Assembly: GCA_963725665.1 (NCBI GenBank)
Contig: CAVRZA010000001.1
Coordinates: forward strand, 448,001-512,000
Direction: 5' to 3'
Origin: an uncultured Actinomycetes bacterium
Lineage (GTDB): Bacteria; Actinomycetota; Thermoleophilia; UBA2241
Length of the DNA: 64,000 bases
A model generated the notes under the pieces. It did not search any database. It was not told the origin of the DNA and worked only from the letters and a program-made list of their open reading frames with translations. Positions 1,145-43,700 of this stretch are shown piece after piece; the stretch's first letter is position 1; each line of letters begins with the position of its first letter. The translations under genes and the position numbers were made by a program.

Positions 1145-4100
1145 TTGGTGAACGACGACAAGCGATCGCGCTTTCGCGACGTCTCCCCGCGCGTCGAGTT
1201 CCCCGAACTCGACGCGCGCATCCTCGCCTTCTGGAGGGAGCGCCGCATCTTCGAGAAGAGCCTCGCCCTGCGCGAGGACGCGCCGCTCTTCGTCTTCTAC
1301 GAAGGCCCTCCGACGGCCAACGGGCGCCCGGGTGCGCACCACGTGCTCTCGCGCGTCTTCAAAGACATCTTCCCCCGCTACAAGACGATGCGTGGCTTCA
1401 AGGTCCCGCGCAAGGCGGGCTGGGACACGCACGGTCTGCCCGTCGAGCTCGAGATCGAGCGCCGGCTGGGCATCAACGGCAAGAAGGAGATCGAGGAGTA
1501 CGGCATCGTCGAGTTCAACCGTCTCTGCAAGGAGAGCGTCCTCACCTACCTCGAGGAGTGGGACCGCCTGACCGAGCGCATCGGTTTCTGGATCGACCTC
1601 GGCGACGCCTACTACACGTTCACCAACGAGTACATCGAGACGGTGTGGTGGCTGCTGCGCCAGATCTGGGACAAGGACCTCCTCTACCAGGGGTACAAGG
1701 TGGTGCCCTACTGCCCTCGCTGCGGCACGGCCATCTCGAGCCACGAGGTGTCGCAGGGCTACCAGGAGATCGAAGAGCCAAGCGTCTACGTGCGCTTCCC
1801 GCTGCACGCGGAGGGCGCCGCGCTGCTCGCAGGCGAGGTTGAGGGCGGCGACGCCGCCGAAGAGGGCGGTGCCGCGTCGTTGCTCGTCTGGACCACGACC
1901 CCCTGGACGCTGATCTCGAACGTCGCCGCCGCCGTGCACCCCGACATCGAGTACGCGCTCGCCGAGAGCCGCGGCGAGCGCTTCGTGCTCGCCGCCGACC
2001 TCGTCGAGCCCGTCTTGGGCAAGGGCGCCCGCATCCTGGGCACGTTCCCCGGCAGCCGTCTGGTCGGACTGGGCTACGAGCCGCCTTACACCTTCGTCAC
2101 GCCCGACAAGCCGGCCTTCGTGGTAGTCCCCGGCGACTACGTGACCACGACCGAGGGCACAGGCGTCGTGCACACCGCGCCGGCCTTCGGCGAGGACGAC
2201 ATGCGCGTCTGCCTCGAGAACGACCTTCCCGTGCTGAACCCTGTCGATGGTGAGGGCAAGTTCGCCGCCGAGGTGACGCCCTGGGCAGGCGTCTTCGTCA
2301 AGGACGCCGACCCGCGCATCATCGCCGACCTGCGCCGGCGCGGCTTGCTCGTCGCCGAGGTCCCCTACGCGCACAGCTACCCCTTCTGCTGGCGCTGTGA
2401 CACGCCGCTCCTCTACTACTCGAAGTCGACCTGGTTCATCCGCACCACGGGCGTCAAGAAGGAGCTGCTGGCGGCCAACGACGCCGTCACCTGGTACCCG
2501 GAGCACATCAAGCGCGGGCGCTTCGGCGAGTGGCTCGAGAACAACGTCGACTGGGCCCTGTCGCGTGACCGCTACTGGGGTACCCCGCTGCCGGTGTGGC
2601 GCTGCGACGAGGGGCACGTGCACTGCGTCGGCAGCGTCGCCGAGCTGCGCGAGCTGGCGGTCACGCCGCCGCCCGACGACCTCGACCTGCACCGCCCCTA
2701 CGTCGACGAGGTCGTCCTGCGCTGTTCGGAGTGCGGCGGCGAGATGCACCGCGTGCCCGAGGTCATCGACGCCTGGTTCGACTCGGGCGCCATGCCCTAC
2801 GCGCAGTGGCACTATCCGTTCGAGAACACGGACACCTTCAAGGCCCGCTTTCCCGCCGACTTCATCGCCGAGGCCATCGATCAGACGCGGGGCTGGTTCT
2901 ACAGCCTGCTCGCCGAGGGCACCCTGCTCTTCGGCGAGAGCAGCTTCCGCACCGTCCTCTGCCTGGGCCACATCCTCGACGCCGAGGGCCAGAAGATGAG
3001 CAAGAGCCGCGGCAACGTGGTCGAGCCCGACGCCGTGCTCGACCGCCAAGGGGCCGATGCCTTCCGTTGGTACCTCTTCACCGTCTCGAGCCCCTGGTAT
3101 GTGCGCCGCTTCTCCCCCGAGATGGTCGACGAGGTGGTGCGCAAGTTCCTCCTCACGCTGTGGAACACCTACAGCTTCTTCACCGTCTACGCCAACATCG
3201 ACCGCTTCGATCCCACCGCCGAGCCCGTGCCGGTGGCCGAACGGGCGCTGCTCGACCGCTGGATCATCGGCGAGCTCAATCGCCTCGTCCGCGATGTGAC
3301 GAGCGGTCTCGAGGACTACGATGCGACGACCACGGGCCGGGCCATCCAGCAGTTCGTCGAAGACCTCTCGAACTGGTACGTGCGCCGCAGCCGGCGACGC
3401 TTCTGGAAGGGCGGCCACGACCGCGACAAGCTGGCCGCCTACCACACGCTCTACGAGTGCCTTGTTACGTTGGCCAAGCTGCTGGCGCCGTACACGCCCT
3501 TCATCGCCGAGGAGCTCTACCAAAACCTCGCGTGCTCCGTCGACGCGACGGTGCCCGAGAGCGTGCACCTCTGCGACTGGCCCGTCGCCGACGCCGATCT
3601 GATCGACGAGGCGGTGGGCTTCGACATGGCCGCCGCGCGCCAGGTCGTCGAGCTCGGGCGCGCGGCGCGCAACGGCGCCGGCGTCAAGACGCGCCAGCCG
3701 CTGCGCGAGGTCGCCGTGGCGGTCGGCGAGGCGCGCGAGCGCGCGGCGCTCGCGCGCCTCGCCGACCTCATCGTCGATGAGCTCAACGTGAAGGGGCTGC
3801 GCTTCGTCGAGAGCGCCGACGAGCTCTCTGGGGTGCGCGTCAAACCCAACCTGCCGGTGCTCGGACCCAAGCACGGCAAGCTCCTGCCGCAGATCAAGGC
3901 CGCGCTGGAGCTCGTGGAACCCGCGGCCTTCGTCGCCGAGCTCCGCAGCCGCGGCGCGCTCGCCCTGGCGCTCCCCGATGGCGCTGAGGTCGAGCTCAGC
4001 GAGGGCGACCTCCTGATCGAGACGACGGCCGCCGAGGGCTACCGCGTGGAGCGCCAGGGCGAGCGCGCCGTAGCCCTTGCCGTCGAGATAGACGGGCCGC

Positions 4101-13097: not shown

Positions 13098-13351
13098 AGT
13101 CTTCCTTTAGGCCGTGGGTTTGCCTCGCGCGCCCTACAGGGCGCTATGTCAGACCAGGGTTTTACCACCCTCGCGGTGAATGAGCAATACGGCAGCGGGC
13201 GCGGTCCCGTCTAGCCTCGCCGTCGTGCGTGGACGAAGCCAACGCAGCTTCGTTGCTTGCCTCGTTGGGCGAGGCTATACTAGCGCCCGATATTCCAGGG
13301 GTGGGTCAGGGGAAGGAAGGTTCTCTTCCCGGCCCGGAAAGGAGGACCTTC

Positions 13352-13501
13352 ATGGCGACCGAGGCGTACTGCGTGAAGTGCCGCACCAAGAGGACGATGA
13401 AGGACGAGAAGAAAGTCACGATGAAGAACGGCAAGCCCGCTACCCAGGGCACGTGCCCAGTGTGCAGCACGAAGATGTTCAAGATCGGCGCAGGCAAGTA
13501 G
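13352..13501 (+). CDS. Small zinc-ribbon protein (DUF5679-like)
   Basis: YCVKC...GTCPVCSTKMFKI; AAAGGAGG before ATG at 13352. Confidence 0.8.
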   Translation: MATEAYCVKCRTKRTMKDEKKVTMKNGKPATQGTCPVCSTKMFKIGAGK

Positions 13502-13540
13502 TAGCACCCTCGGACCACCCGGAAGCGTAGAGCAGTCTTC

Positions 13541-13580
13541 GGCGGGGGCGGCGGGCCCGGACGGGCCCGCCGCCCCCGCC
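13541..13580 (+). terminator. GC-rich hairpin, probable terminator at the end of the core region
   Basis: Perfect 18-bp inverted repeat GGCGGGGGCGGCGGGCCC / GGGCCCGCCGCCCCCGCC with a 4-nt loop, between convergent genes. Confidence 0.7.
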
Positions 13581-13657
13581 CGCTTTCACGCGTGCCGGGG
13601 AGGGCCGGGGGCAGGAGTGCCACAATCTGCCCCCGGCCCTCGTAGCTCACCACACCC

Positions 13658-14317
13658 TCAGGCGGTTCTCGAACTGCCCTCCGGCAGGAGAAGCTCGGCG
13701 AGACTGCTGGCGAGCCAGTCGCGGTAACGCTGCCTCGTCCAGCCCCGGACGCGGACAAGGAGCTGGTGGAGCTCGGGGCTCGTCAGCGCCCAGACCGTCT
13801 CGACGGCCTCGTCCACATCGAGCCGGAGCGGCCCGTTGGCAGCCAGGGCGTCGACGAGCACGTGAAGATTCTTCATCCGGTCGGCGTGCAGGGCGGCGAG
13901 GAGTTGCGCAAGCTCGGGGTCCGATCGCGACGCGCCCGCGACGACCGCGACGAGCGGCGCGGCGCGCTCGAGGCGGAGCACGATGTCGGCCGCGAAGAGC
14001 CGCAGTTGCTCGTGTTGATCGGTCGCCGCGGCCACGGCGCGCGGGCCCTTCTGCTCGGGCACAGGCGCAGGGTCGTCGCCGCGAACCGCACTGCGGACGA
14101 GTTCGCCGAGCAAGGAACGTTTGTTCCCAAAGTGGCCGTAGACGGACTCCGCCGACACATGAGCCCCCTCAGCGATCGCCGCGATGCTCGTGCCCTCATA
14201 CCCGCGCTCCCGAAATAGGGTCGCGGCGGCGTCGAGCACCAAAGCGCGCGTCTGCTCTGCCTGTTCGCGCCGGCGCTCAGAGTGATAACGGCGACGTTGG
14301 TTAGCATCTTCTGCCAT
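13658..14317 (-). CDS. TetR-family regulator
   Basis: N-terminal HTH (TSIAAIAEGAHVSAESVYGHFGNK). Confidence 0.9.
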   Translation of the reverse strand: MAEDANQRRRYHSERRREQAEQTRALVLDAAATLFRERGYEGTSIAAIAEGAHVSAESVYGHFGNKRSLLGELVRSAVRGDDPAPVPEQKGPRAVAAATDQHEQLRLFAADIVLRLERAAPLVAVVAGASRSDPELAQLLAALHADRMKNLHVLVDALAANGPLRLDVDEAVETVWALTSPELHQLLVRVRGWTRQRYRDWLASSLAELLLPEGSSRTA

Positions 14318-14323
14318 ATTGGG

Positions 14324-14358
14324 TACAGTGCCACAGTATCTACTACAGGTAAACTGTA
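14324..14358. promoter_or_regulatory. Tandem putative TetR operators
   Basis: TACAG-N5-CTGTA at 14344-14358 and a 1-mismatch copy at 14324-14338, 20 bp apart, in the divergent intergenic gap. Confidence 0.55.
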
Positions 14359-14375
14359 TCCAAAGGGAGGACCCC

Positions 14376-14825
14376 ATGTCCAGCCCAGAAGTGCTCGCCC
14401 GCCGCTTGATCGAGGAAGGCTTCAACGAGGGCAACCTCAGCGTCGCCGACGACCTCGTCTCCCCCAGCATGGTCGAACATCAGAACTTCGGACCGGATCA
14501 CGCTCCTGGAGCGGAGGGCGTCAAAGCGGTGATCTCCTCGCTGCGGCGCGCTTTCTCCGACTTCCATCTCACCATCGACGACCTCGCCGTCAACGGCGAC
14601 ACCGTCTGGCTCCGTATGACCGGCACTGGCACCAATGACGGTTCGTTCATGGGTCATCCACCGACAGGCCGCCCGATGCGTACCGACGTCTTCGACGCTC
14701 TCCGTGTCGAGAACGACCGCATAGTCGAACACTGGGGAATCCCTGACCGTCTGGGCACCCTCTTCCAGCTCGGACTGGCCGAGCCACCGCGTGCCGCCTC
14801 TTCGTCTACCTCGATGCTGACCTAG
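14376..14825 (+). CDS. SnoaL-like ester cyclase
   Basis: AFSDFHLTI, GTNDGSFMGHPPTGR and IVEHW; GGGAGG before ATG. Confidence 0.85.
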   Translation: MSSPEVLARRLIEEGFNEGNLSVADDLVSPSMVEHQNFGPDHAPGAEGVKAVISSLRRAFSDFHLTIDDLAVNGDTVWLRMTGTGTNDGSFMGHPPTGRPMRTDVFDALRVENDRIVEHWGIPDRLGTLFQLGLAEPPRAASSSTSMLT

Positions 14826-15005
14826 ATTCGGTGCGCGGCAGCTCAGTGATCCGCGAGCCCTCTCCAAGCGGCTCGAAGGCATACGGCCGAGGCCGGGGGC
14901 GCTGGATGCTTCCCACACGCCCTCGGCCTCGGCAGCCTCTCAGTGGTCGCGCCTCTCAGGCAGCGGACAAGACGCATGTCCGCGTGGCCCGTGGTGCGAC
15001 GCTTG

Positions 15006-15731
15006 TCACGCCGCCGGTCGCAGCTCGTTCTTGGAAGCGGTCGTGGAGGCGGACTCGACGGGCTCGAAGCCGAGCTGCTGCAGACCAGACGCCCTGAATC
15101 CCTTGACGACGAGGTAGACGCCCAGCGAGAACTCCCACAGCGCGATCGGGAGTGTGAGGAGCCCCGACATCGCGGAGCCATACTCGTTGGCGCCGAACAA
15201 CGTGGCGATGCTGGAAGCGACGAGCAGGGGCGCGCCGATGAATCCCAGCACGGGCAGGACCCGCGGCACCAGGCGCGACTGGTACAGCAGGTAGCCCAGC
15301 AACACGGCGTTCACGGCCGGAATGAGGCTTTGTCCGAGGATGAACGTCCAGTCATGCAGGCCGACCAGCGTCTGGCCGGTGGCCAGCGCACCTGCTCCGG
15401 CTCCGGCCTGCCGCAAGTTCACCACCGCCAGGAGGCTGAAGGCGCCGACGAAGATCATGGCGGCTTCCAGGGTCCGCACGCCGACGAAGCCCAACGCGAC
15501 CCCTTCGTTCTGCCGCTTGACCACCGGGTAGAGCGCCACGGCGGTGCCGATGCCGGCGAGGGCCACGATCAACTCCAGGACGACGCCGATGAACACGCGA
15601 GTGTCCGGGCCGGGGCCGACGATGTAGTTCGCCCCACGCACCGAACTGTAGAGAAACAGGGTCGGGATCGAGACAAAGGTGAGCAGGTAGAGCAAGCCCG
15701 CGGTCAGCGAGATCTTTCTAGTCGAATCCAT
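15006..15731 (-). CDS. DUF4386-like multi-pass membrane protein
   Basis: AGLLYLLTFV, LYQSRLVPR and WEFSLGVYLVVKGF; AAGGAG before ATG at 15731. Confidence 0.7.
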   Translation of the reverse strand: MDSTRKISLTAGLLYLLTFVSIPTLFLYSSVRGANYIVGPGPDTRVFIGVVLELIVALAGIGTAVALYPVVKRQNEGVALGFVGVRTLEAAMIFVGAFSLLAVVNLRQAGAGAGALATGQTLVGLHDWTFILGQSLIPAVNAVLLGYLLYQSRLVPRVLPVLGFIGAPLLVASSIATLFGANEYGSAMSGLLTLPIALWEFSLGVYLVVKGFRASGLQQLGFEPVESASTTASKNELRPAA

Positions 15732-15940
15732 CTTGACCAACTCCTTGGGTCGGTGCTTGGTCGAGCCGGCGATTGCGATAATGAACGTACTGCCATTTGG
15801 GAGGAAGACCCCTAATTTTCTCGGTGATGTCTGACCATGCCCCGTCTGGCGCATGGCGAACCCCAGGGCCCGTTTGGGGCGACTGGTCAACGCTCAGAGC
15901 GAGGTGCGGCGCCGGCGACGCTGCGGGAGGTGCCGCACGG

Positions 15941-16026
15941 TTCCTGCAGATTTAGCAGCTTCTTGGCAACTCGTGGTATCCTTGCCGAGCCGCAGCAGAG
16001 GAAAACCCCTGCAAAACGGCACAATG
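15941..16026 (+). repeat. Diverged copy of the about 85 bp immediately upstream of tRNA-Arg (left att arm/promoter)
   Basis: TTCCTGCAGATTT..GCAACTCGTGGTAT..CCGCAGC..CCTGCAAA.CGGCACAATG aligns with 20539-20624. Confidence 0.85.
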
Positions 16027-16032
16027 TGTCCT

Positions 16033-16605
16033 CTGGGCCGACCTCGACCTGGAGCGCGGCTTCGTCAACGTCTGCCGCACCGTCGAGGAGGACGAGGACG
16101 GCAGCCTCCTCGAGTACCCGCCGAAGAACGGCAAGGCGCGGGTGGTGCCGCTGCCCGCCGCGGCCTGCGAGGAGCTGCGCACCGCTCTCACGGCGCAGAA
16201 GGAGTACCGCCTGGCGCATGGCGGCTCTTGGAACAGGCGGGGAGGGTCGTCCCCAAGAAGGACGGCACCCAGATTGCGCCCTCGACCCTGAAGAGCCGGT
16301 GGTGGAACTGGGTGGCGCGGCAGAAGATCGATCCCCACCTGCCGATGCACGGGCTGCGCGACTCGCTCGGCACTTGGGTCTACGAGGAGTACGGCGTCAA
16401 GCAGGCGCAGGAGTGGCTCGGCCACTCCGACCCGGCGACCACGCTGCGCCACTACGTGCGCCTCACCACCGCCGCGCGGGCGAAGGCGGTCGCCGGGCTC
16501 GACGAGGTCACGCGGGCCGCGCTCGAGCGCGCCGAGTAGAGCGTCCGCGAGGACGCCCGGCCCGTCCTCGACAACGTCGTGTCGCTCGCAAGCCGGAGGC
16601 GCTGA
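16033..16605 (+). pseudogene. Tyrosine integrase family B, 3' fragment 1
   Basis: WADLDL, PPKNGKARVVPL, HGLRDSLG, WLGHSDPATTLRHY; frameshift near 16240 and in-frame TAG at 16537 before the native end NVVSLASRRR*. Confidence 0.88.
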
Positions 16606-16674
16606 CCAAGCCGAGCGGCGGCTCGGGTCACGCTAGTGCCCATTCGTGCGACAGTCTGCGACGAGCCACGCTCG

Positions 16675-17598
16675 CTAGGCGGCCTTCGGGAAGTCGCGCC
16701 GTACCACCTCCTCGAGACTCGTCGGGTGGACGCTCGGGTAGCTCCGCGCCGTCTCGCTGTCGTCGAAGGCCATGTCCGTCGTGTCCATGACGACGGCGGC
16801 CTTGGCCTGGCGGGCCATCGTCGAGCTGAAGGGCCGCATGATTACCGACATGGCCCGCAGCATCGGCAGCGGTATGTGCCGCTCGCGGCCTGAGGCGCCC
16901 GTTAGTTCCTCGAAGCGGTGCACGAGCTGGTTGACGCTCAGATCGTCCGGACCGCCGACGTCGATCGCCTGGCCACGGAGCCCGTGATCGACCAGGGCCA
17001 GTTCGATGAAGGCCGCGACATCGCGCGCCGAGACGAAGTTGATGGGATTGTCACCGCGCCCGAAGATGCGCGTCTTGTGGTCCTGGAGCAGCGGCGCCGC
17101 GACAAGCGCGGCCCAGACCTCCATCGACGGCGTGGGGCGGATGATGGTCCATGGCAGGATCGAAGACGTCAGGACCTGCTCGACCCGGTACTTGATCCGT
17201 CCCAGCTCGAGGGGGCTGTCCGGGGCGGCGCCGTGCAGCGAGACCAGGACGAAATGACTGCTGCCGGCGTTCTCCGCCGCGCGGATCAGATTGATGTTGC
17301 CCTGCAGGTCGGCGCTGCGTAGATCGCCGCCGTGTGGCCGGCCAAAGGCCGAGAAGGCCGAGACGACGGCGTCGCAGCCTTCGACCGCTGTCTCGAGGAC
17401 GTTCTGGTCCCGCACATCGCCCGGCACGACCTCGATCATCTCATTCTCCACGCTCCTGGCTCGCTCCGCGTCGCGGGCCAGGATCCGCACCTCGAAACCG
17501 TGCTCAGTCAGTCGGCCGACCAGATGGCCGCCGAGCGTGCCGGTGCCACCCGCGACGGCCACCAGACGAGGTTGATGCTCCTGCTGTTGCGTGCTCAT
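16675..17598 (-). CDS. NmrA/SDR-like NAD(P)-binding oxidoreductase
   Basis: GGTGTLG Rossmann motif, WTIIRP, FVSARDVA. Confidence 0.85.
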   Translation of the reverse strand: MSTQQQEHQPRLVAVAGGTGTLGGHLVGRLTEHGFEVRILARDAERARSVENEMIEVVPGDVRDQNVLETAVEGCDAVVSAFSAFGRPHGGDLRSADLQGNINLIRAAENAGSSHFVLVSLHGAAPDSPLELGRIKYRVEQVLTSSILPWTIIRPTPSMEVWAALVAAPLLQDHKTRIFGRGDNPINFVSARDVAAFIELALVDHGLRGQAIDVGGPDDLSVNQLVHRFEELTGASGRERHIPLPMLRAMSVIMRPFSSTMARQAKAAVVMDTTDMAFDDSETARSYPSVHPTSLEEVVRRDFPKAA

Positions 17599-18011
17599 GC
17601 GACTCGCCTCCCGCTCGCCAGGTCGGTGACTGCCTGCTCGATGCCGGCGCCACTCTCATCCACGGGCTCCATGTAGAGGCGCATCCAGCGGACGACGTCG
17701 TCGCGCTGGCCCAGGATGATGACGCCGCGCATCACCCATGGGCTGCCGTCGCGGCCCGTGCCACGCCACTCCCACTCCGTCCAGACCTCGTCCCCGTATG
17801 CTGCCCAGCTCTTCAGCTCGGCCTTGAGATCGGGCACGCTGCCGAGGATCTGCGTCCAGTTCTTGCGCACCTGCTCGCTCCCCCGGAACGAGCGGTCAGG
17901 GTGTGCGGGCTGGTCACTGTCGTAGTCGGGGTCGAAACATGCCGTGAGCGCGTCGAGATCGTGGTCATTGATGGCTTGCTGCATGCTCTGCACTATGCGT
18001 GGGGGGTTCAT
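17595..18011 (-). CDS. SnoaL/NTF2-like protein
   Basis: AINDHDLDALTACFDPDY and MRLYME; ATGA overlap with the SDR gene. Confidence 0.8.
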   Translation of the reverse strand: MNPPRIVQSMQQAINDHDLDALTACFDPDYDSDQPAHPDRSFRGSEQVRKNWTQILGSVPDLKAELKSWAAYGDEVWTEWEWRGTGRDGSPWVMRGVIILGQRDDVVRWMRLYMEPVDESGAGIEQAVTDLASGRRVA

Positions 18012-18183
18012 CACCACATCACCGACTCTCGCAGGAGCCACGGCCCAACGGCGCTGACCCTGCCGAGACCGCTGCTCGCTTCCGTTTCTCCGATGTCGGC
18101 AGTGTTCCCGAGTTCGTCGGGAAGAACGCACCGCCGCCGCCCTGCTCGCGTCGTGAGCAACCCTCCCTCAGCGCGTCAGATAC

Positions 18184-18209
18184 TTGACAGTATCATTGAT
18201 ATCATCAAT
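18184..18209 (+). promoter_or_regulatory. -35 TTGACA plus palindromic operator (putative MarR site)
   Basis: TTGACA at 18184; ATTGAT-atc-ATCAAT at 18195-18209 just before marR. Confidence 0.55.
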
Positions 18210-18219
18210 CATATCCGCC

Positions 18220-18720
18220 ATGGACCACCCGCCGATCTCCGCGCACGACGAAGGGCTCTTCGAGCATGATGTCGGAGTCAGCTACCTGCACCTGCTGCGC
18301 GAGGTGCTGCTCACGTACCGGCTTCTCATGCGGGGGGCGACGGCCGAGTTCGGGGTCTCGGGCGCCCAGTTCGAGGTCCTGCGGCAGCTCGCCCTGGCAG
18401 GCGGTCGCTCCATGACCTCGGCGTTGGCGCGCGACCTGGCCGTCGACCCGGCCGCCGTGACGCGGCTCGTCGCCGGCCTGGAGCGCCTCGAGCTGGTCTC
18501 GCGCGAGGACGATGTGCGGGACGGGCGCCGGCGGCCGGTGCTGCTCACGCCCGCCGGCCGCGCCATGATGCTCGACTTTCACGCGCGCATGCACGCCCGC
18601 GAGGCCGCGCTGGCCGAGTCTATCGACCAGGCGTCGATCGACGGCGCCATGCGTGTCCTCCAGACCATCAGAAGCGTCTTCGACCCCAGCGCGCTGCGCC
18701 GGCCGAGCCAGTCCAAGTGA
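18220..18720 (+). CDS. MarR-family regulator
   Basis: VTRLVAGLERLELVSR...DGRRRPVLLTPAG wing motif. Confidence 0.88.
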   Translation: MDHPPISAHDEGLFEHDVGVSYLHLLREVLLTYRLLMRGATAEFGVSGAQFEVLRQLALAGGRSMTSALARDLAVDPAAVTRLVAGLERLELVSREDDVRDGRRRPVLLTPAGRAMMLDFHARMHAREAALAESIDQASIDGAMRVLQTIRSVFDPSALRRPSQSK

Positions 18721-18730
18721 GGAGACTCTC

Positions 18731-18994
18731 GTGAATGCGAACCCTGGACGCCTGGACGCCTCGAAACCGCGGCGCCGTCACAGCCGGACCACGACGCCTT
18801 TCGTCGCCCTGGATCGATCGCTCTGCAAGGCGTGCTGGTGTTGTGTAGCGGCCTGCCCCGAGGCCGTCCTCGGCAAGCTGGAGTTCGGCTGGCACAAGCA
18901 CGCCGTGGTCGACTCCGGCGAGCTTTGCACCGGATGTGGCAAGTGCCTGAAGGCATGCACGTCCGGAGCGCTCAGCGGCCGCAGCGTCGCGTAG
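18731..18994 (+). CDS. 2x[4Fe-4S] ferredoxin-like protein
   Basis: CKACWCCVAACP and CTGCGKCLKAC; GAGGAG before GTG. Confidence 0.8.
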   Translation: MNANPGRLDASKPRRRHSRTTTPFVALDRSLCKACWCCVAACPEAVLGKLEFGWHKHAVVDSGELCTGCGKCLKACTSGALSGRSVA

Positions 18995-19149
18995 TCGATG
19001 GGTCACTTGGGCGGGGACCTTCACATGGACGCGCCAGAGAAACAGACGTCGAGCGAGGTCCTGCCTTGGGCTCTGATCGGCGTCTATTTCGCGGCCAGTC
19101 TGGCCGACAAGATCTACCCGAACGCCGCCTGCGGCGTGACCTTCGTCGT

Positions 19150-19430
19150 CGCCGCGAGGGCGCCAGCCGTTTCTTCGAACGGAGTGCCGGGGTCGGGCCA
19201 GTGCAGCTGGTAGAGGTCGATGTAGTCCGTGCCAAGGTTGCGCAGGCTCGACTCCACGCCCTCCCTCAGCCAGGACGCGCTCGAGTCCCTGACGAGGGTG
19301 TCTCCCTCCATGCGCAGCCCGCCCTTGGTCGCCACGATCACCTCATCGCGCCGGACCCGTTCCCACAGCGCCTCGCCCAGCAAACGCTCGGACACGCCGA
19401 AGCCGTAGCCCTGTGCCGTGTCGTTGGCGA
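19150..19430 (-). pseudogene. Aldo/keto reductase internal fragment
   Basis: DTAQGYGFGVSE, ATKGG and SLRNLGTDYIDLYQLHWPD; both ends missing. Confidence 0.8.
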
Positions 19431-19453
19431 AGATGTGTGGGAGTGTCACAGAG

Positions 19454-19779
19454 CACCCTCGACCATGAAGAGCCAGTGGTGGAACTGGGTCGCCCGCCAG
19501 AGGATCGACCCGCATCTGCTCATCCACGGCCGGCGCGACTCGTTCGGTACCTGGGTCTGCGAGACCTACGGCGTCAAGCAGGCGCAGGAGCGGCTCGGCC
19601 ACTCCGACCCGGCGACCACGCTGCGCCACTACGTGCGCCTGACCACCGCCGCAAGGGCGAAGGCGGTCGCGGGGCTCGACGAGGTGACGCGGGCCGCGCT
19701 CGAGGCTGCCCAGGCGCAGTGCATGGAGGACGAGACGCCGCCGAACAATGTTGTCGAGTTGGCCAGCCGACGCCGCTGA
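19454..19779 (+). pseudogene. Tyrosine integrase family B, 3' fragment 2
   Basis: PSTMKSQWWNWVARQRIDPHL..LGHSDPATTLRHY..NVVELASRRR*, closely matching 16277-16605. Confidence 0.9.
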
Positions 19780-19839
19780 AGCTGTCAGGTGGCGGCGACC
19801 TCCAGGGACGTGGTGCGCTTCAGCCGCGACTGTGAGCGC

Positions 19840-20211
19840 TCAGCTCACCGCTTGCTTCACGAGCGCGGTGATCTTCGCCTCCTCGGCGGCGGTCAACTTC
19901 TTCACCGCGAAGGCGACTGGCCACATTGCGCCTTCGTCGAGGTTCGCCTCGTGCTGGAAGCCAAACGTCGCGTACCTCGTCTTGAATTTCTGTGCGCTTT
20001 GGAAGAAGCACACGACCTTGCCGTCCTTGGCATACGCGGGCATCCCGTACCAGAGTCTTGGCGAGAGAACTGGTCCGTTGGCTTTGATGATCGCATGGAG
20101 CCGCTCGGCTATGGCGCGATCAGGTTCCGGCATCGCGGCGATGTTTGCGAGCACCTCGGCCTCGCCGTCGGCCTTCTTCGTTGCCTTGTTCGCAGCTTTC
20201 TTCTCAGCCAT
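19840..20211 (-). CDS. DUF1801-like protein
   Basis: [19 protein letters not shown] and TRYATFGF. Confidence 0.75.
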
Positions 20212-20324
20212 AGTGCCTTCCCTCCTATCTGCGGAGCTGTCAGTGAGGAATCAACGCGGTCGGTTCAACGAACAGCTTGTACCCGGCGCAGCGGGCCGAG
20301 AACATACATACCCGCCTGCGTGGT

Positions 20325-20510
20325 GTGGCCGATGGAGAAGATCGCCCGCGTCGTCGTCCGCGCCCGCGGCCTGCAGGTCCACGCAGCCGGCGTGCTCGCC
20401 GGCTTCTCCGGCCTCAGGGTCGGGGAGGTCGCGGGCCTGCGCTGGTCCGACCTCGACTTCGACCAGGGTTTCGTGCATGTGCACTTCACCATCGAGGAGG
20501 ACGAGGACAA
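20325..20510 (+). pseudogene. Tyrosine integrase family B, internal fragment 3
   Basis: FSGLRVGEVAGLRWSDLDFDQGFVHVHFTIEEDED; overlaps the region at the start of fragment 1 (VEEDED). Confidence 0.8.
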
Positions 20511-20550
20511 GACGCCGGGAAGGGTTCCACCGTCGCGTTTCCTGCAGATT

Positions 20551-20580
20551 TGGCAACTTATTAGCAACTCGTGGTATTCT
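20551..20580 (+). promoter_or_regulatory. Putative tRNA promoter (extended -10) overlapping GCAACT direct repeats
   Basis: TGnTATTCT at 20572-20580; TGGCAACT/TAGCAACT 11 bp apart; motif conserved in the 15941 copy. Confidence 0.55.
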
Positions 20581-20623
20581 GGTCCGGCCGCAGCGGGACA
20601 AAGTACCTGCAAATCGGCACAAT

Positions 20624-20699
20624 GCCCTCGTAGCTCAGTGGATAGAGCACAGGTTTCCTAAACCTGGTGTCGTAGGTTCGATTCCTACCGGGGGCACCA
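20624..20699 (+). tRNA. tRNA-Arg(CCT)
   Basis: Full cloverleaf: GCCCTCG/CGGGGGC acceptor, CAGGT-TTCCTAA-ACCTG anticodon arm, GTAGG-TTCGATT-CCTAC T arm, encoded CCA. Confidence 0.97.
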
Positions 20700-20946
20700 G
20701 TTTTCCCCTGCATATGGCGATTTCGCCTTCCTGCTCGAGGCCTCATTCTTGGCCGAATCGGCAAGATTGCCGACATTTTGCCGACGAGACGCACGGCCAC
20801 AGCAGGCTACTGCAGGGCACGGGGCAGTATTGAAGGGCGCCGCGACGGAGTGAGAGCTCGTCTGGTTCACTACGGACATGGGTCGACTGAAGCGTGCGCC
20901 CGTCAAGGCGGCGCAACTTTGAGAGGGTCGTAGCCGTTCGCGGAGC

Positions 20947-21789
20947 CTACGAGGCCCGATCCTCCCGGACTCGCGCGCGCTGTACCTGCCGCGACCGCTC
21001 GTGAGCCCCCTGCCCCCGTCGCAGCAGGATGGCGGCCGGCACGACGGCGATGAGCACCCCCAGCGCCACGAGCTGGGCCTCGCGCAGCCCGAGGAAGAGG
21101 ATGACGTTGACGCGCTCGAAGGAGATGAAGAAGCGCCCCAGGGAGTAGAGCCCCAGATAGAGCAGGAAGGCCATGCCGTCGGTCTTCAGCCGCGGCATGG
21201 CCCAGAGCAGGATGGCGATCACAACCAGCAACCAGAGCTGCTCGTAGACCGGCGTCGGCTGCGTGGGGACACCGAGCAGGTTCGCCGGCAGCAGCGCATG
21301 CGGGTTCTTATAGACGAACCCCCAAGGGAGCTTCGTGGCGTAGCCCCAGGTGTCGCCGTTGATGATGTTGGCGCACTTGCCGATCAGCTGCCCGACTGGG
21401 ATGGCCAGCGCCAAGGCATCGAGCACGCGCAGGAAGGGCAGCTTCTTCCAGCGGCAGTAGATGAAGACCGCTAGAACGCCGCCACTGATGACGCCGTAGA
21501 TGGCCAGGCCGATGAGCTGCAGCGTCCAGAGCTGCCCCGGGTGGTGCCAGTAGAAGCCCAAGTTGTCGAGGATGTGGAAGAGCCGCGCCCCGGCGATGCC
21601 AAGCGGGATGGCAAGGAGCAGCATCCCGTAGACGTGGTCGGGGTCGATGCCACGCCGCCGCAGCTGGCGCGCAAAGACGTAGGCGCCGACGAGCACGGCG
21701 ATGGCCATGATGACGCCGTACCAGCGCACGGCGAACGGCCCCAGGTGGAAGAGGATGGGGTCGATGTTGATCGTGATGGAGCCGGTCAC
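20947..21789 (-). CDS. lgt: Prolipoprotein diacylglyceryl transferase
   Basis: IDPILFHLGPFAVRWYG, GARLFH and QPTPVYE; signature somewhat diverged (GKCANIINGD). Confidence 0.85.
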   Translation of the reverse strand: MTGSITINIDPILFHLGPFAVRWYGVIMAIAVLVGAYVFARQLRRRGIDPDHVYGMLLLAIPLGIAGARLFHILDNLGFYWHHPGQLWTLQLIGLAIYGVISGGVLAVFIYCRWKKLPFLRVLDALALAIPVGQLIGKCANIINGDTWGYATKLPWGFVYKNPHALLPANLLGVPTQPTPVYEQLWLLVVIAILLWAMPRLKTDGMAFLLYLGLYSLGRFFISFERVNVILFLGLREAQLVALGVLIAVVPAAILLRRGQGAHERSRQVQRARVREDRAS

Positions 21790-21838
21790 CGGGCAGTCGC
21801 CTCGAGCACTTCTTCCCCCCGACAGGTTTGGCTATTCC

Positions 21839-21857
21839 GAAAATGGTTATCAGTTTC
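21839..21857. promoter_or_regulatory. Putative Zur/Fur box
   Basis: AT-rich imperfect palindrome GAAAATG-GTTAT-CAGTTTC between divergent lgt and znuA, with a Fur-family gene in the operon. Confidence 0.55.
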
Positions 21858-21860
21858 AGC

Positions 21861-22784
21861 GTGGTTGCCAACCTGTCACGTCTACTCCATCGCCCTGTGC
21901 CCGGCGCGCTCGCCCTGTCGGCTCTCCTTGCGCTGCTTCTCTCCGCCTGCGGCAGCGGCACCTCGACAGCGAGCGGCGGCGGCAAGGTGAACGTCGTGGC
22001 CGCCGAGAACTTCTGGGGCAACATCGCCGCGCAGATCGGCGGCGGCCACGTCCAGGTGACCTCGATCATCTCCGATCCCAGCGCCGACCCCCACCTCTAT
22101 GCCTCCAACGCCGCCAACGCCGCCGCCGTGGCTCGTGCCCAACTCGTGATCGACAGCGGCGCCGGCTACGACACCTTCATGAACGATCTTCTGAGCGCCT
22201 CGGGCGCCCATCCCGCGGTCGTCTCGGCGCAAGCGGTTCTCAAGGTAAGCGGCGCCGACGCCAACCCCCATCTCTGGTACGACATCCCGCGGGTGCCCGC
22301 CGTCGCCGCCGCCATCGAGCACGCGCTGGCCCGTATCGACCCGGCCAACAAGGCCGCCTTCGAAGCCAACCTCGCCAAGTTCGATCGCTCGTTGGCCCCT
22401 GTGAAGGCGGTCATCGCAAAGATCAAGGGCAAGTACGGCGGCGCACCGGTCGCCTACACGGAACGCGTGCCCGGCTACCTGCTCGCCGACGCGGGGCTTA
22501 CGGTGGCCTCGCCGCCGGGCTTCGCCAGTGCCATCGAGAACGGCAACGAACCCGCCCCCGCCGACGTGCAGGCGATGAACACCCTGCTCAGCGGGCACAA
22601 GGTGCGTCTCCTTCTCTACAACGAACAGGCGGTGAGCGCGGTCACCCAGCGCGTCCGCTCGCTGGCGCAGCAGAACGGCATCCCCGTGGTCGGCGTCAGC
22701 GAGACCCTGCCGCCCTCCGATGCGAGCTACCAGGCGTGGCAGCTGCGCCAGGCGCAGGAGATCCTGCGCGCGCTGGGCGGCTAG
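21861..22784 (+). CDS. Zn/Mn ABC transporter substrate-binding lipoprotein (ZnuA-like)
   Basis: Lipobox LLSAC, DPHLY and NPHLWYD; start approximate. Confidence 0.9.
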   Translation: MVANLSRLLHRPVPGALALSALLALLLSACGSGTSTASGGGKVNVVAAENFWGNIAAQIGGGHVQVTSIISDPSADPHLYASNAANAAAVARAQLVIDSGAGYDTFMNDLLSASGAHPAVVSAQAVLKVSGADANPHLWYDIPRVPAVAAAIEHALARIDPANKAAFEANLAKFDRSLAPVKAVIAKIKGKYGGAPVAYTERVPGYLLADAGLTVASPPGFASAIENGNEPAPADVQAMNTLLSGHKVRLLLYNEQAVSAVTQRVRSLAQQNGIPVVGVSETLPPSDASYQAWQLRQAQEILRALGG

Positions 22785-22808
22785 CGTCGTGGCGCGGGAC
22801 GGGAAGCT

Positions 22809-23637
22809 GTGCGGAGAACGGAGGTCCTTCTGCGCCTACGTGGCGCGACGTGGCCTTCGGCGCGCGCACACTCTGGCAGGGCCTCACGCTGGAGGTCCGC
22901 CGGGGCGAGTTCCTGGCCGTGCTGGGACCGAACGGCTCGGGCAAGACGACGCTCCTGCGCGTCCTTTTGGGGCTGCAGCCCCTGGCCGCCGGAACGGTCG
23001 AGATCGCCGGACAGCCTCCCCATCGCGGCGACCCCCGCGTCGGCTACGTGCCCCAGCAGCGCGCCTTCGACCGCGACCTCCCCGTGCGGGGGCGTGATCT
23101 CGTTCGCTTGGGCCTCGACGGACATCGCGCGGGCTGCCCCTTCGGCGCAGAAGCGTGCGAGCGCGCGTCGATGCGGCGATCTGGCTGCGGTCGGCGCGGC
23201 AGACTACGCCAACGCCCCCATCGGCCGGCTCTCGGGCGGCGAGCAGCAACGACTGCGCATCGCCCAGGCGCTGTTGGGAGATCCGCTGGCGCTGCTCTGC
23301 GACGAGCCGCTGCTCTCGCTCGACCTCGCTCACCAGCAGGCGATGACGGCGCTCCTCGACCAGCGGCGGCGCGCGCCGGTACGGCCATCGTCTTCGTGAC
23401 GCACGAGATCAACCCCATCCTGCCCTACGCCGATCGCGTGCTCTACCTCGTGGGCGGCCGCTGGGCGGTGGGCACGCCCGAGGAGGTCCTCACGAGCGCG
23501 CGCTTGAGCGCCCTCTACGGCGCCCCCGTCGAGGTCGTTCGCCTGGGGGACGCATCCTGGTGGCGGCGGCGGACGAGAGCGACTACACCGAGCCCGAGGG
23601 CCACACCCACCACCTCGAGCAAGGGCGCATCACGTGA
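22809..23637 (+). pseudogene. Metal ABC transporter ATPase (ZnuC-like), several frameshifts
   Basis: GPNGSGKT, LSGGEQQR, LLCDEP and VTHEINP fall in different frames. Confidence 0.85.
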
Positions 23638-24509
23638 GCCTGGGCTCCTACCTGCAGCTGCCGTTCGCACAGCACGCCCTGCTCGCGGGCGCCCTGGTGG
23701 CGGTCACCTGCGGCCTCATCGGACCCTTCGTCATCACGCGCCGCATGGCCTTCGCCGTGCACGGCGCCAGCGAGCTCGCCTTCACCGGCGCCGCGGCGGG
23801 GCTCCTGGTCGCCGGCGACGCCGTCGCCGGCGCGCTCTGCGGCGCCGCCGTGGTCGCCGTCCTCATCGGCGTCCTCGGCGTGCGCGAGCACGAGCGCGAC
23901 TCGGCCATCGGGGTGGTGCTCGCCGCCGGCCTGGGCCTCGGCGTTTTGCTCTTAAGCTACTACCACGGCTTCGCCACGGCGGCCACCAACATCCTCTTCG
24001 GCGACATCTTCGGCGTCAGCAATCACCAGCTCGTCCTGCTGCTGGCGATCGGCATCGCCGTGGTCGTCGTCATGGCGGTCATCTACCGGCCGCTGCTCTT
24101 CGCCTCGGTCGATCCCGAGGTGGCCGTGGCGCGCGGCGTGCCCGTGCGCCTGCTGGGGCTGGTGTTTCTCTTCGTCTTGGCCTTCACCGTCACCGAGGCG
24201 GCCCAGGTCGTCGGCACGCTGCTCGTCCTGAGCCTGGCCATCACCCCCGCCGCTTCAGCACAACGTTTGGCGACGAGCCCCTTCGCCGTGTTCGGCCTGT
24301 CGATCGGCTTCGCCTTGATCGCCGCCGACGGCGGCATTCTCGCCAGCCTGCAGAGCAGCACCGTCAAGCCGAGCGTCTTTGTGACCGGCATCAGCTTCGG
24401 TATCTACGTGCTCGCGCGCCTTCTCGGCCCCCGTCTCAGGGGACAGCGGCGGGTGGTACCATCGGCAGTGGAAGGAAGGGAGACTCATGGACAGCAAGCA
24501 ATCTCCTGA
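23634..24509 (+). CDS. Metal ABC transporter permease (ZnuB-like)
   Basis: RRMAFAVHGASE, ILFGDI and DPEVAVARGVP. Confidence 0.9.
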   Translation: MSLGSYLQLPFAQHALLAGALVAVTCGLIGPFVITRRMAFAVHGASELAFTGAAAGLLVAGDAVAGALCGAAVVAVLIGVLGVREHERDSAIGVVLAAGLGLGVLLLSYYHGFATAATNILFGDIFGVSNHQLVLLLAIGIAVVVVMAVIYRPLLFASVDPEVAVARGVPVRLLGLVFLFVLAFTVTEAAQVVGTLLVLSLAITPAASAQRLATSPFAVFGLSIGFALIAADGGILASLQSSTVKPSVFVTGISFGIYVLARLLGPRLRGQRRVVPSAVEGRETHGQQAIS

Positions 24510-24957
24510 TCAAAGCCGAGCAAGGACGACCCGACAGGGCGAGGCCGTGCTGCGCACCGCCCAGTCATCGGAGCTCTTCCGCAGCGCGCAGGACATCCAC
24601 GCCGAGCTGCGCGCCGCCGGCGAGTCGGTCGGGCTGACGACCGTGTATCGTCATCTCCAGTCGCTGGCGGATGACGGTGTCCTTGACACCCTGCGGACGG
24701 GCGAAGGCGAGCTCCTCTACCGCTGCTGCCGTATGGACGAGCATCACCACCATCTGGTCTGCGAGAGCTGCGGCCGAACGACCGAGATCGAGGGCGCCGA
24801 CATCGAGCGCTGGGTCGAGAAGGCAGCGGGCAAGCACGGCTACACGAGCACGAGTCACACCCTCGAGATCTTCGGCCTGTGCGCAGCCTGCCATGAGAAG
24901 GCAGTCGCAGAGGGAGCCTCTTTCCACGGTGTCGACTCTGGCAGGAACGCCAGGTAA
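24487..24957 (+). CDS. Fur-family regulator (Zur-like)
   Basis: GLTTVYRHL, HHHHLVCESCG and GLCAAC. Confidence 0.9.
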   Translation: MDSKQSPDQSRARTTRQGEAVLRTAQSSELFRSAQDIHAELRAAGESVGLTTVYRHLQSLADDGVLDTLRTGEGELLYRCCRMDEHHHHLVCESCGRTTEIEGADIERWVEKAAGKHGYTSTSHTLEIFGLCAACHEKAVAEGASFHGVDSGRNAR

Positions 24958-25073
24958 CACGCTCGGGTCGGACGGCCATCGCTCGGACCGCCAGCTCGAA
25001 GAGTGCCGATCTGGAGAGTTTCGTGCTGGGCCGTGAAGTGCAGCGCCGCCTCGAGTGCCTGGACCGACCTCGG

Positions 25074-25328
25074 CTACGTCCCGGCGAACACCAGCCCCGC
25101 GATCAGCGCCGCCGCCTCCTCCTGCATCGCCGGGATGGCGTGCGAGTAGGTGTCGAGAGTGATGGAGACGGTGGCGTGGCCGAGGCGCTCGGAGACGACC
25201 TTGGGGTGTACGCCGGCCTGCAGGGCGAGGGTGGCGTGCGTGTGGCGCAGGTCGTGCAGTTGGATGCTCGGCGCCGCCTTCTTGACTGCCTGCCCGAAGA
25301 AACGACTCGACGACCTCGGGGTGCGGGG
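25074..25328 (-). repeat. Integrase A 3' tail #1
   Basis: ..LHDLRHTHATLALQAGVHPKVVSERLGHATVSITLDTYSHAIPAMQEEAAALIAGLVFAGT*. Confidence 0.95.
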
Positions 25329-25447
25329 CCTGGCCGTCCTCGTGTGTGAAAGATCACCTCCTTCTTCGACGGCAGCGCTGCAACGGCATCAGCGGGTCGA
25401 CGGCGGGGGAAGCTTGTCGTACGAGATGCGATCAGAGGAGGACAAGC

Positions 25448-40778: not shown

Positions 40779-43700
40779 ATGAAGCGCTTCGTGTGGTTGC
40801 CTGTCAGTCTCTGCCTGCTATGCGTCTTCTGCCTCGCGACGCTCTTGGCCGCCCCGGAAGCGGCCAGAGCCGATGGCGCACTCAGCTCCACTCCCGACCA
40901 GCAGCCCTGGATTGCCAACGACACCGTCAACGTCATCGCCACCGCGCCCAACGGGATCACCTACGTCGGCGGCGGGTTCACGTATGTCGGCCCCAACACG
41001 GGAGGCGCCGCCGCCCTCGATGAGACAAGCGGCGCCCCGGATATGGCGTTCCCGCGGGTGGAAGGCACCGTGGAAGCGGCGGTCAGTGACGGCGCCGGCG
41101 GCTACTACATCGGCGGCGTGTTCACTCGGGTGGGCGGCGTCACCCGCAACGACATCGCCCACATCCTGCCCGACGGCTCGGTGGACCCAGCCTTCGACCC
41201 CAATGCGAACGACTCGGTCCTCACGCTGGCCGTCTCGGGCTCGACCGTCTACGCCGGCGGGACCTTCACCTCGATCGGCGGACAGACGCGCAACAACATC
41301 GCCGCCCTGTCTGCCGGCAGCGGCCTGGCCACGACCTGGGACCCCAACGCCGACAAGGAGGTCGACGCCCTCCTCGTCTCGGGCTCGACCGTCTACGCAG
41401 GCGGCTGGTTCACCTCGATCGGCGGCCAGACTCGCTACGCCATCGCCGCCCTGTCTGCCGGCAGCGGGCTCGCCACGACCTGGGCCCCCAATGCCGGCAA
41501 CGCACCGTACGGCAACGCCAACGTCTCCACCCTGGCTGTCTCGGGCTCGACCGTCTACGCCGGCGGCTGGTTCACCTCGATCGGCGGCCAGAGCCGCAGC
41601 GGCATCGCCGCCGTGTCTGCAAGCAGCGGCTCAGCCACGGCGTGGAACCCGAAGGCAGGCGGCGGCACTTCCATCGGATCTCCCGTCCTGGCCCTCGCCG
41701 TCTCGGGCTCGACCGTCTACGCGAGCGGGTTCTTCACCTCGATAGGGGGCCAGAACCGCACCTTCATCGCCGCCCTGGATGCCGGCAGCGGCCTGGCCAC
41801 GGCCTGGAATCCCAGCGCGGACGGCACAGTCAGGGCCTTCGCCGTCACGGGCTCGACCGTCTACGCCGGCGGTAACTTCACCTCGATAGGGGGCCAGAAC
41901 CGCCATGGCATCGCTGCCCTGAATGCGAGCAGTGGCGCCGCCACGACCTGGAACCCCAACCCGGTCAACGGGGTCAGCGACGGCACCGTCAACGCCCTCG
42001 TCATCTCGGGCTCGACCATCTACGCCGGCGGGGACTTCACCTCGATCGGCGGCCAGACCCGCAACGGCATCGCAGCTTTGAACGCGAGCGGCGCCGTCAC
42101 GGCGTGGAACCCCGACGCGACCTGGGGGGACTGGCAGGGGAGCATCGCCGCCATCGCCGTCTCGGGCTCGACCGTCTACGTCGGCGGGGACTTTGACTTC
42201 ATCGGCGGCCAGACCCGCAACGACATCGCCGCCTTGGACGCCGGCAGTGGCCTTGCCACGGCCTGGGATCCCGAGGCGAGCGCGACGGGCTATGCCGGGG
42301 TCTCAGCCCTCGCCGTCTCGGGCTCGACCGTCTACGCCGGCGGGCTGTTCACCTCGATCGGCGGCCAGATGCGAAATCACATCGCCGCGCTTGATGCCGG
42401 CAGCGGCCTCGCCACAGGCTGGGATCCCAACGCGGACGCCAACGTCTCCGCCTTGGCCGTCTCGGGCTCGACCGTCTACGCGGGAGGCTGGTTCACCTCG
42501 GTCGGCGGCCAGACCCGCAAGAACCTCGCCGCCCTGGATGCGACCAGCGGCCTCGCCACAGGCTGGGATCCCAGTCCCGACCGAGCGGTCGATGCCCTCG
42601 CCGTCTCGGGCTCGACCGTCTACGCCGTCGGCTACTTCACCTCGATCGGCGGCCAGAGCCGCAGCGAGATCGCCGCCGTGGATGCGACCAGCGGCCTCGC
42701 CACAGGCTGGGACCCCAACGCGGGCGGCACCTCCTACCATGAGGTCCACACACTGGCCGTCTCGGGATCGACCGTCTATGTCGGCGGCGAGTTCAGCACC
42801 ATCGGCGGTCAGGCGCGCGACAACCTCGCCGCCCTCGATGCCGGCAGCGGCCTCGCCACGGCCTGGGATCCCGGCGCGGGCGACCCGTCGTATTCCACGG
42901 TCTACGCGCTCGCCGTGTCGGGCTCGACCGTCTACGTCGGCGGGAACTTCACCTCGATCGGCGGCCACTACCAGCCGTACCTGGCGCGCTTCTCGTCGCC
43001 CACTCCTCCCACCGTGACCAGCCCCAACGGTGGCGAGACCTGGACGCTGGTTTCCACCCACGACATCACCTGGGATGCCGGCAACGGCGGCAAGGTGAAC
43101 GTCGAACTCTCGCGCGACAACGGCTCAAGCTGGGAGACCCTCTTCGCCTCGACGGCCAACGACGGCTCCGAGTCCTGGACGGTCAGCGGCCCGACCACCA
43201 GCCAGGCCCTGGTGCGGATCTCCAACGAGAAGGGCAGCGGCAGCTCCACCGCGCCGTTCACGATCGCCCCCGCCCTGACGGGCTCGATGAGCCTCGACGG
43301 CGGCGCCGCGTATGCAACGAGCACCGCGGTGACGATCGACAGCTCGGTCTCGGGCGTCACCCAGATGCGCTTCGAGAACGCCGGCGGCAGCTGGAGCACC
43401 TGGGAGGCCTACAACGCCACCAAGGCCTGGACGCTGCCCTCAGGCGACGGCGCCAAGACCGTCGAGGCCCAGTACCGTGATGCGGACGATAACGTCCTCG
43501 ATCTCTCCGCTGACGTCACCCTGGACAGCACCCCGCCGGTGACTACCAACGACGCCCCCACCGGCTGGAAGAAAGCCTCCGTGACGGTGCACTTGAGCCC
43601 GACCGATGCAGGCTCGGGCATGACCGGCGGTTCTGCCAAGACCGAGTACTCCACCGATGGCGGCACGACCTGGACGACCGGCACCTCCCTGACGATCACC

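Follow-up and report, generated by a model that had tools for sequence, protein, structure and literature searches.

A probable decayed array of small integrative elements restoring the 5′ half of tRNA-Arg(CCT) in an uncultured Thermoleophilia bacterium

The window analyzed here is a 64,000-nucleotide stretch of contig CAVRZA010000001.1 (positions 448,001 to 512,000; assembly GCA_963725665.1), from an uncultured bacterium of the Thermoleophilia. It holds a single tRNA gene, tRNA-Arg(CCT), identified with ARAGORN. On the 5′ side of this gene, fragments of a tyrosine integrase, hereafter integrase B, are interspersed with cargo genes and with two copies of the sequence that immediately precedes the tRNA. 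We conclude that this region, 13636-20662, is very probably the decayed remnant of five or more small integrative elements in tandem, each of which would have restored the 5′ half of the tRNA gene upon integration.

Features upstream of the tRNA gene

From left to right, the array consists of a stub of the tRNA gene, a TetR/SnoaL module, DUF4386, arm 1, integrase fragment A, cargo running from NmrA to an aldo/keto reductase, fragment B, DUF1801, fragment C, arm 2 and the tRNA gene itself (Table 1). That is, an intact tRNA gene lies at one end and a fragment of its 5′ part lies upstream on the same strand, which is the layout that Islander uses to recognize an island in tRNA gene DNA (tDNA). 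An earlier interpretation made from the letters alone (the sequence-only reading) had described an array of a second integrase family beginning at 15006; the array is real, and its start moves to 13636, where the stub was found.

Table 1. Features of the array and its left flank, in window coordinates
Feature	Position	Strand	Details
DUF5679 gene	13229-13501		stop codon at 13499-13501
Spacer, presumed native, from DUF5679 gene to original tRNA position	13502-13635	+	terminator-like hairpin; -10-like CACAAT 9 nt before tRNA stub
Native tRNA-Arg(CCT) stub	13636-13649	+	first 14 nt, exact; outermost displaced 5′ fragment; left array end
TetR + SnoaL cargo module	13652-14806		TetR 13658-14470 (-), SnoaL 14319-14825 (+); Pfam
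DUF4386 cargo module, putative second element	14880-15928	-	DUF4386 protein 15006-15890; Pfam
Arm 1, putative P arm of an older element	15938-16026	+	80% identical to arm 2
Integrase-B fragment A	16028-16587	+	residues 242-428 of 433; HGLRD at 16348
Mixed cargo	16675-19420		NmrA/SDR 16675-17655 (-), SnoaL_2 17595-18167 (-), MarR (+), ferredoxin (+); Pfam
Internal aldo/keto-reductase fragment	~19149-19419	-	Pfam
Integrase-B fragment B	19453-19779	+	residues 325-432; HGRRD at 19525
DUF1801 protein, cargo	19840-20250	-	Pfam
Integrase-B fragment C	20322-20515	+	residues 204 to ~268; GLRVGE arginine box
Arm 2, putative element-borne P arm, now tRNA upstream region	20536-20623	+
tRNA-Arg(CCT)	20624-20699	+	nt 1-39 (20624-20662) probably element-restored; anticodon loop 20655-20661, predicted crossover

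The three integrase pieces, which the sequence-only reading had singled out as a family with HGLRD in place of HDLRH, were confirmed by tblastn with an intact relative of 433 amino acids, whose residue numbers are used throughout. HGLRD itself is present in fragment A; in fragment B it is mutated to HGRRD. Fragment A changes frame between 16231 and 16261 and has a premature stop codon at 16537-16539. The tblastn matches run over 19453-19773 (residues 325-432) for fragment B and 20323-20535 (residues 204-274) for fragment C, with DNA homology of the latter stopping near 20515. As had been read from the sequence, the two pieces that keep the 3′ end of the gene are each followed by convergent cargo, which Pfam identifies as NmrA/SDR plus SnoaL_2 and as DUF1801, all on the minus strand.

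Because the pieces overlap in the residues that they cover (242-428, 325-432 and 204-274), they derive from at least two genes, and by their divergence from three. Fragment B is 91% identical to copies in other genomes versus 89% to fragment A; for fragment C the values are 87% and, over the shared 67 nt, 76%. An alternative is that no series of elements existed, and that insertions and rearrangements shattered a single one, with one integrase gene and its cargo. The survival of fragments only, and the several junctions that are plain deletions, would fit this; yet we consider it highly improbable, given the residue overlap among the three pieces and their DNA divergence of 11-24%, the presence of two arms together with the native stub, and the fact that in relatives the cargo modules belong to separate elements.

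We also considered integration of the type known from Sulfolobus spindle-shaped virus (SSV), in which the integrase gene is split, as the end of fragment C and the start of fragment A both fall around one 67-nt stretch of the integrase, adjoining an arm. This candidate was rejected: fragment A is continuous across the stretch, no attachment (att) site is present there in intact relatives, and identity between the two copies is only 76%.

The 89 nt up to and including base +1 of the tRNA (20536-20624) are repeated at 15938-16026, with 80% identity and E = 3.4e-16 in a whole-genome search; about 85 bp of this duplication had been noticed from the sequence. Since the repeat ends at base +1, the left copy lacks the tRNA 5′ half. 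Arm 2 contains two GCAAC repeats, a TG-n-TATTCT extended -10-like box and a CCTGCAAATCGGCAC box. These blocks, i.e., the GCAAC module, the TG-n-TATTCT box and the CCTGCAAATCGGCAC box adjoining the tRNA, are kept across 41 distinct arm sequences, and this conservation suggests that the arm may act as a promoter through TG-n-TATTCT. Arm 1 is 89% identical to the arm of genome G023 (locus L045) versus 80% to arm 2, which ranks only 20th among the matches of arm 1. For each of the fragments and arms, copies in other genomes are closer than the partner within the window, which ranks 19th to 35th; this points to separate acquisitions rather than local duplication.

At the left end, the stub sits 135 bp past the DUF5679 gene, in the order DUF5679 stop codon, hairpin, CACAAT and stub. 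Its 14-mer occurs twice in the window, at 13636 and at the tRNA start, versus a chance expectation of 0.01. Homology to the TetR-SnoaL module of genome G021 begins 2 nt after the stub ends.

Integrase B and its attachment sites in relatives

A scan for integrase B in one genome per species yielded 39 loci, most of them labelled as metagenome-assembled genomes (MAGs) of Thermoleophilia or other actinobacteria. Intact genes are found in G021 (L040 3485-4783, minus strand) and G003 (L046 9257-10552), where the integrase aims at the 5′ end of the tRNA from 0.9-1.35 kb away, with convergent cargo in between. In 16 of the 20 near-full-length loci, the DNA 0.1-5 kb downstream has, on the strand of the integrase, one of two arrangements: the arm with the tRNA, or the arm with the tRNA 5′ half and a further arm described below (P′ arm). 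The remaining four (L049, L054, L057 and L081) have neither, and the loci L049 and L054 extend only ~2.2 and 1.6 kb past the integrase. Of the 19 scan loci checked for an open integrase frame, which are all near-full-length loci minus L054, 11 have one. Equivalent islands have an intact integrase in G021, G003 and nine further loci, and the window holds its three fragments only.

By its match to PF00589 (E = 1.8e-22 for the intact relative, with additional weak SAM-like domains) and its R...HxxR...H/W...Y residues, integrase B is classified as a tyrosine recombinase; NCBIfam gave only sub-threshold Xer-like matches. Residues R235, H349, R352, H374 and Y384 are invariant in 11 integrase sequences, and we take their catalytic roles to be those known in tyrosine recombinases generally. 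Ahead of the SAM-like domain lies an extra N-terminal region of ~85 residues, and no arm-binding domain was found in integrase B with Pfam. The AlphaFold model of the protein is poor, with a mean predicted local distance difference test (pLDDT) score of 59.6; its N-terminal 83 residues form three strands and a helix (pLDDT 67-84). A wide fold search with this poor model returned weak, mostly helical matches (best Z 6.2), with partial ones to the Tn1549 integrase and XerD and none for the N-terminal domain.

A more distant integrase (57% identical) is found in another Actinomycetota MAG, at L069 7001-8377. It ends 93 bp before a tRNA-Arg(CCT) gene and aims at its 5′ end, and arm homology at this locus is at most 18 nt. 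From this locus, the target and polarity of the integrase may be older than the arm. Relatives of integrase B also occur in L080 and L081, which belong to MAGs labelled Delta- or Betaproteobacteria; as L081 shares a sample label with Thermoleophilia MAGs, a binning error seems likelier than transfer.

The arm plus tRNA was searched in 40 relatives (Thermoleophilia MAGs). Genomes G012, G014 and G021 have extra upstream copies of the arm and 5′ half that end at query position 127, i.e., at tRNA nt 39, and bare tRNA 5′ halves are present in G005 and G020. In all eight displaced copies that were aligned, identity to the tRNA ends after nt 39 (...TTTCCTAAA, in the anticodon loop) and is followed by a common P′ arm of ~140 nt. 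The P′ arm carries a ~34-nt module with two GCAAC repeats, which resembles the first 34 nt of the upstream arm (P arm); the module is therefore present on both arms of the element att site (attP), in the same orientation, and its repeats are putative binding sites for the integrase. Since displaced copies consist of the arm, tRNA nt 1-39 and the P′ arm, crossover would take place in the anticodon loop, with the element supplying the 5′ half and its upstream arm. The att sequence fixes only the right limit of the crossover, where identity ends after nt 39; the left limit is undefined because the arm and 5′ half are homologous on both partners, and the exact position within the loop is thus a prediction. 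An attP that carries the tRNA 5′ half and the arm had been expected for intact copies of the integrase; relatives have it, with the P′ arm in addition. The proposal that a second family integrates at this tRNA and restores its 5′ part is likewise supported by the 16 of 20 near-full-length loci and the eight of eight displaced copies.

Elements in relatives are 2.5-8 kb long and have just three parts in common, namely the P′ arm, the integrase together with the preceding 40-160 bp, and the P arm plus 5′ half; the rest is variable cargo. Several cargo modules of the window have counterparts among them. The module at 13652-14806 is 80-81% identical over 1.1 kb to modules in G021 (L040/L056), L059 and L066, where it is located between the integrase stop codon and the arm with the 5′ half. 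The DUF4386 module is 81-86% identical to those of L064, L066, L077 and L078; in L077 it is followed by the arm, the 5′ half and the P′ arm, and in the window by arm 1, after which the 5′ half and P′ arm that follow this arm in relatives have been deleted. Finally, 16675-18129 (NmrA-SnoaL_2) has a counterpart of 79% identity at L059 9938-11392, flanked by an integrase on one side and by an arm plus 5′ half on the other.

A profile of the P′ arm has one full match in the genome, at C6:160983-161126 (E 1.7e-27; C1, C2 and C6 denote contigs of this genome), and a partial match on the minus strand at C1:71595-71697 (E 1.3e-10), covering the motif-bearing outer part of the profile. The C6 match belongs to an orphan att-like site at C6:160983-161238 (L009 ~1370-1624, minus strand), which comprises an arm, a decayed tRNA-Arg 5′ half and a full P′ arm and is 72% identical to the query. 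No tRNA gene or integrase B lies near this site, and a transporter-like reading frame extends into it. The C1 match is a second orphan P′-like arm with a GCAAC module, distant from any tRNA-Arg gene. The motif GCAACC-N5-TGCAAC is also found at least eight times in two contigs (window 31862; C1:39157, 57257, 60940, 77467 and 123321; C2:393733 and 402436). These copies may be arm-type sites of related integrative elements at other targets.

The 5′ site is empty in two relatives, G015 (L020) and G008 (L024), in which glnA and DUF5679 are followed, after ~105-135 bp, by the tRNA. The sequence-only reading had predicted that the homologue of this gene would lie next to the tRNA in such genomes, as it does. 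Their spacers show no similarity to the arm and have a -10-like box 8-10 nt ahead of the tRNA. Alignment shows that the spacer at 13502-13635 of the window parallels them in layout, and it is thus probably the native promoter region. In L084 and G005 (L044), a 5′ half without an element arm is fused directly to the P′ arm, and in L084 this copy comes after DUF5679 and the native spacer. Such an arrangement has the appearance of a first integration into the native gene, and the stub in the window is a native relic of the same type.

These sites bear on whether the 89-nt arm might instead be the native, conserved upstream region of the tRNA, copied to 15938 by local segmental duplication, with the integrase pieces as unrelated debris. 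Nine of the 40 relatives have the arm with the whole tRNA at 81-88% identity, all of them in the family of the window (9/24 versus 0/16 in other families), and the arm has a -10-like box inside it. However, both relatives with DUF5679 next to the tRNA lack the arm, although its conservation upstream of the tRNA in island-free genomes is what a native region predicts. A different promoter, of the native type, is kept with the tRNA stub at 13636; arm 1 resembles arm 2 less (80%) than it does arms of other genomes (89%); and the presence of the arm is patchy inside genera g2 and g10. There is accordingly very little to be said for a native arm.

Proposed serial integration and later loss

Our proposed mechanism is as follows. 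The element would consist of one tyrosine integrase (integrase B), variable cargo and an attP of ~240 bp, made up of a P arm of ~89 nt, a copy of tRNA-Arg(CCT) nt 1-39 and the conserved P′ arm of ~140 nt. The attP would recombine with the chromosomal tRNA gene in the anticodon loop, in an ordinary tyrosine-integrase reaction with reversed polarity. After integration, the P arm and 5′ half of the element would join the resident 3′ part into a working gene, and the former 5′ half, with the DNA upstream of it, would be displaced to the far (left) end of the element. Successive integrations would stack leftwards, such that the newest element adjoins the tRNA. The TetR-SnoaL module would then be the cargo of the oldest element, in the order of integrations that we infer. 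Later deletions, which account for at least six junctions of the array, would have removed all displaced cores, all P′ arms and most of each integrase; what the window keeps is the cargo, three integrase pieces, one displaced arm and the 14-nt stub.

Direct support exists for how the window is laid out, for the att structure of relatives, for the empty sites and for the link between integrase and target. Several results weigh against the proposal. A genome search found no further integrase-B sequence, and no intact copy, in this genome. The P′ profile detects no P′ arm in the window, matching only the arm-like motif at 20524-20571 and 15939-15973, nor does the window have a displaced 5′ half beyond the 14-nt stub; serial integration in this lineage is for this reason inferred. 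Because the displaced 5′-half and P′ copies are deleted here, the mechanism is read from relatives and not from the window alone. In three of the integrase-B loci (L055, L056 and L059; 87 long and 57 short frames), Pfam detected no excisionase, replication or transfer domain, and a simple sigma-70 scan found no promoter in the arm. Lastly, locus counts are not independent, in that some loci come from shared genomes (L056 = G021, L064 = G003, L070/L075 = G012 and L073/L076 = G021).

The absence of an intact integrase B or P′ arm at the locus could also mean that the array was built and decayed in another lineage, and that it was imported as one block by homologous recombination through its flanks (glnA/DUF5679 on one side and the tRNA on the other). 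L066 has the same TetR-SnoaL ... DUF4386 order, and the flanks are conserved within the family, both as expected from such an import. The data fit import and growth in situ alike, and the kind of element and the mechanism of integration are the same either way. We regard import as unlikely, though distinctly less so than a native arm or a single shattered element. The reading that we retain is that of a decayed tandem array of elements that restore the tRNA 5′ half.

The 3′ side of the tRNA, known systems and implications

The sequence-only reading had described the array as the mirror image of another on the 3′ side of the same tRNA, and this description is fair. The 3′ half of the tRNA and ~90 nt downstream (20651-20790) are repeated at 47675-47814 (91%) and 55851-55993 (87%), and the downstream arm of these repeats has two TGCCGAC repeats. 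HDLRH motifs, which belong to the other integrase family, are found on the minus strand at 25242, 25888, 30335, 36015, 52589, 53687 and 62381, in fragments that aim at the tRNA. The two families are only 27-29% identical, and displaced 3′ copies of the HDLRH family begin at tRNA nt 27-32. A third 3′ copy lies outside the window, at C1:551970-552033. It comprises the 3′ half and 18 nt and then diverges, as expected of a native flank; this copy, at a distance of ~90 kb from the native 5′ stub, probably represents the native 3′ half. The present tRNA gene is probably derived from elements in both of its halves.

The interval from the tRNA to the first fragment of an HDLRH integrase (25073-25385, minus strand) holds lgt, znuA, an ABC ATPase/permease and a Fur-family regulator (20947-24957). 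From their position, which matches that of cargo in a mirrored layout, these genes may be cargo of an HDLRH element rather than core genes. A search of this genome for the right boundary of the 3′ island, made with proteins that six relatives encode downstream of the tRNA, gave no useful match. Elsewhere in the window, 40961-43038 is a long coding stretch in which degenerate repeats recur every 144-156 nt, with 11 copies of a 31-nt core; it resembles a repeat protein.

Islands with a displaced 5′ tDNA fragment were reportedly described by Zhao and Williams in 2002 (J Bacteriol) under the term 'reversed target orientation', and Williams (NAR, 2002) is said to have defined an anticodon-loop class of tDNA att sites. 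Restoration of the 5′ part is an already known mode of integration, rare but documented. Table 1 of Islander lists 159 islands with a 5′ tDNA fragment versus 3760 with a 3′ fragment, of 3919 in total (PMC4383910), in agreement with the rarity asserted in the sequence-only reading; the same source gives 2083 islands with anticodon-centred sites and only four tandems of three or more. 5′-distal recombination is likewise termed 'considerably less frequent' in a passage of PMC6563490.

Like the 5′-fragment islands, this family combines a tyrosine integrase, of which the window keeps only fragments, with an intact tDNA at one island end. The displaced 5′ fragment lies upstream, oriented as the tDNA is, and the 5′ part is restored by the island. 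Unlike those islands, the family described here has an arm of ~89 nt that travels with the 5′ half, and its elements are very small, share the integrase as their sole common gene and form multi-element arrays, of which the Islander figures include only the four tandems just cited. The end of the 5′ copies at tRNA nt 39, and the start of the 3′ copies of the other family at nt 27-32, are in keeping with the anticodon-loop class, whereas the polarity of integrase B is opposite to the usual one.

Tycheposons of Prochlorococcus, too, are small, carry cargo and a tyrosine recombinase and insert at tRNA genes, and newcomers are described as pushing older elements deeper into the island, leaving broken integrases and partial tRNAs (bioRxiv 10.1101/2020.12.28.424599). 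They belong to another phylum, the likeness noted here is one of layout, and, as far as that preprint describes them, they have replication or packaging modules, in contrast to the three integrase-B elements inspected, in which none was found. The attP of ~240 bp, with its ~34-nt two-GCAAC module on the P and P′ arms, and the extra N-terminal region of ~85 residues resemble features of heterobivalent integrases of the lambda type, and may reflect a similar organization. The difference is that integrase B has no Pfam arm-binding domain, and its N-terminal model is too poor for a fold to be assigned.

An element that replaces the 5′ part of a tRNA gene must bring both a promoter and half of the gene, which is thought to explain why such elements are rare (~4% of the tDNA islands mapped in the Islander table). 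The integrase-B family offers a clear-cut example from nature, widespread among uncultured Thermoleophilia of soil, with a defined attP, intact copies and empty sites, and here the two halves of one tRNA are served by two different integrase families. These results are of use for the annotation of islands in Thermoleophilia MAGs, and the family provides an integrase whose tRNA target is known; general knowledge of site-specific integration is left unchanged. The parts worth a further look are the rebuilding of the tRNA from two sides and the integrase-only cargo elements. We tentatively suggest, as a possibility somewhat short of an even chance, that tRNA-Arg(CCT), the only gene of its kind in this genome, is a two-way landing pad rebuilt wholly from mobile DNA. 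Two unrelated integrase families would use the same anticodon loop with opposite polarity, one renewing the promoter and 5′ half and the other the 3′ half and downstream arm, so that the native halves now lie ~90 kb apart. Integrase-only elements would leave fixed cargo behind once the integrase and att core are lost, and the locus might thereby serve as a gene-capture platform in Thermoleophilia, somewhat like an integron based on a tRNA gene.

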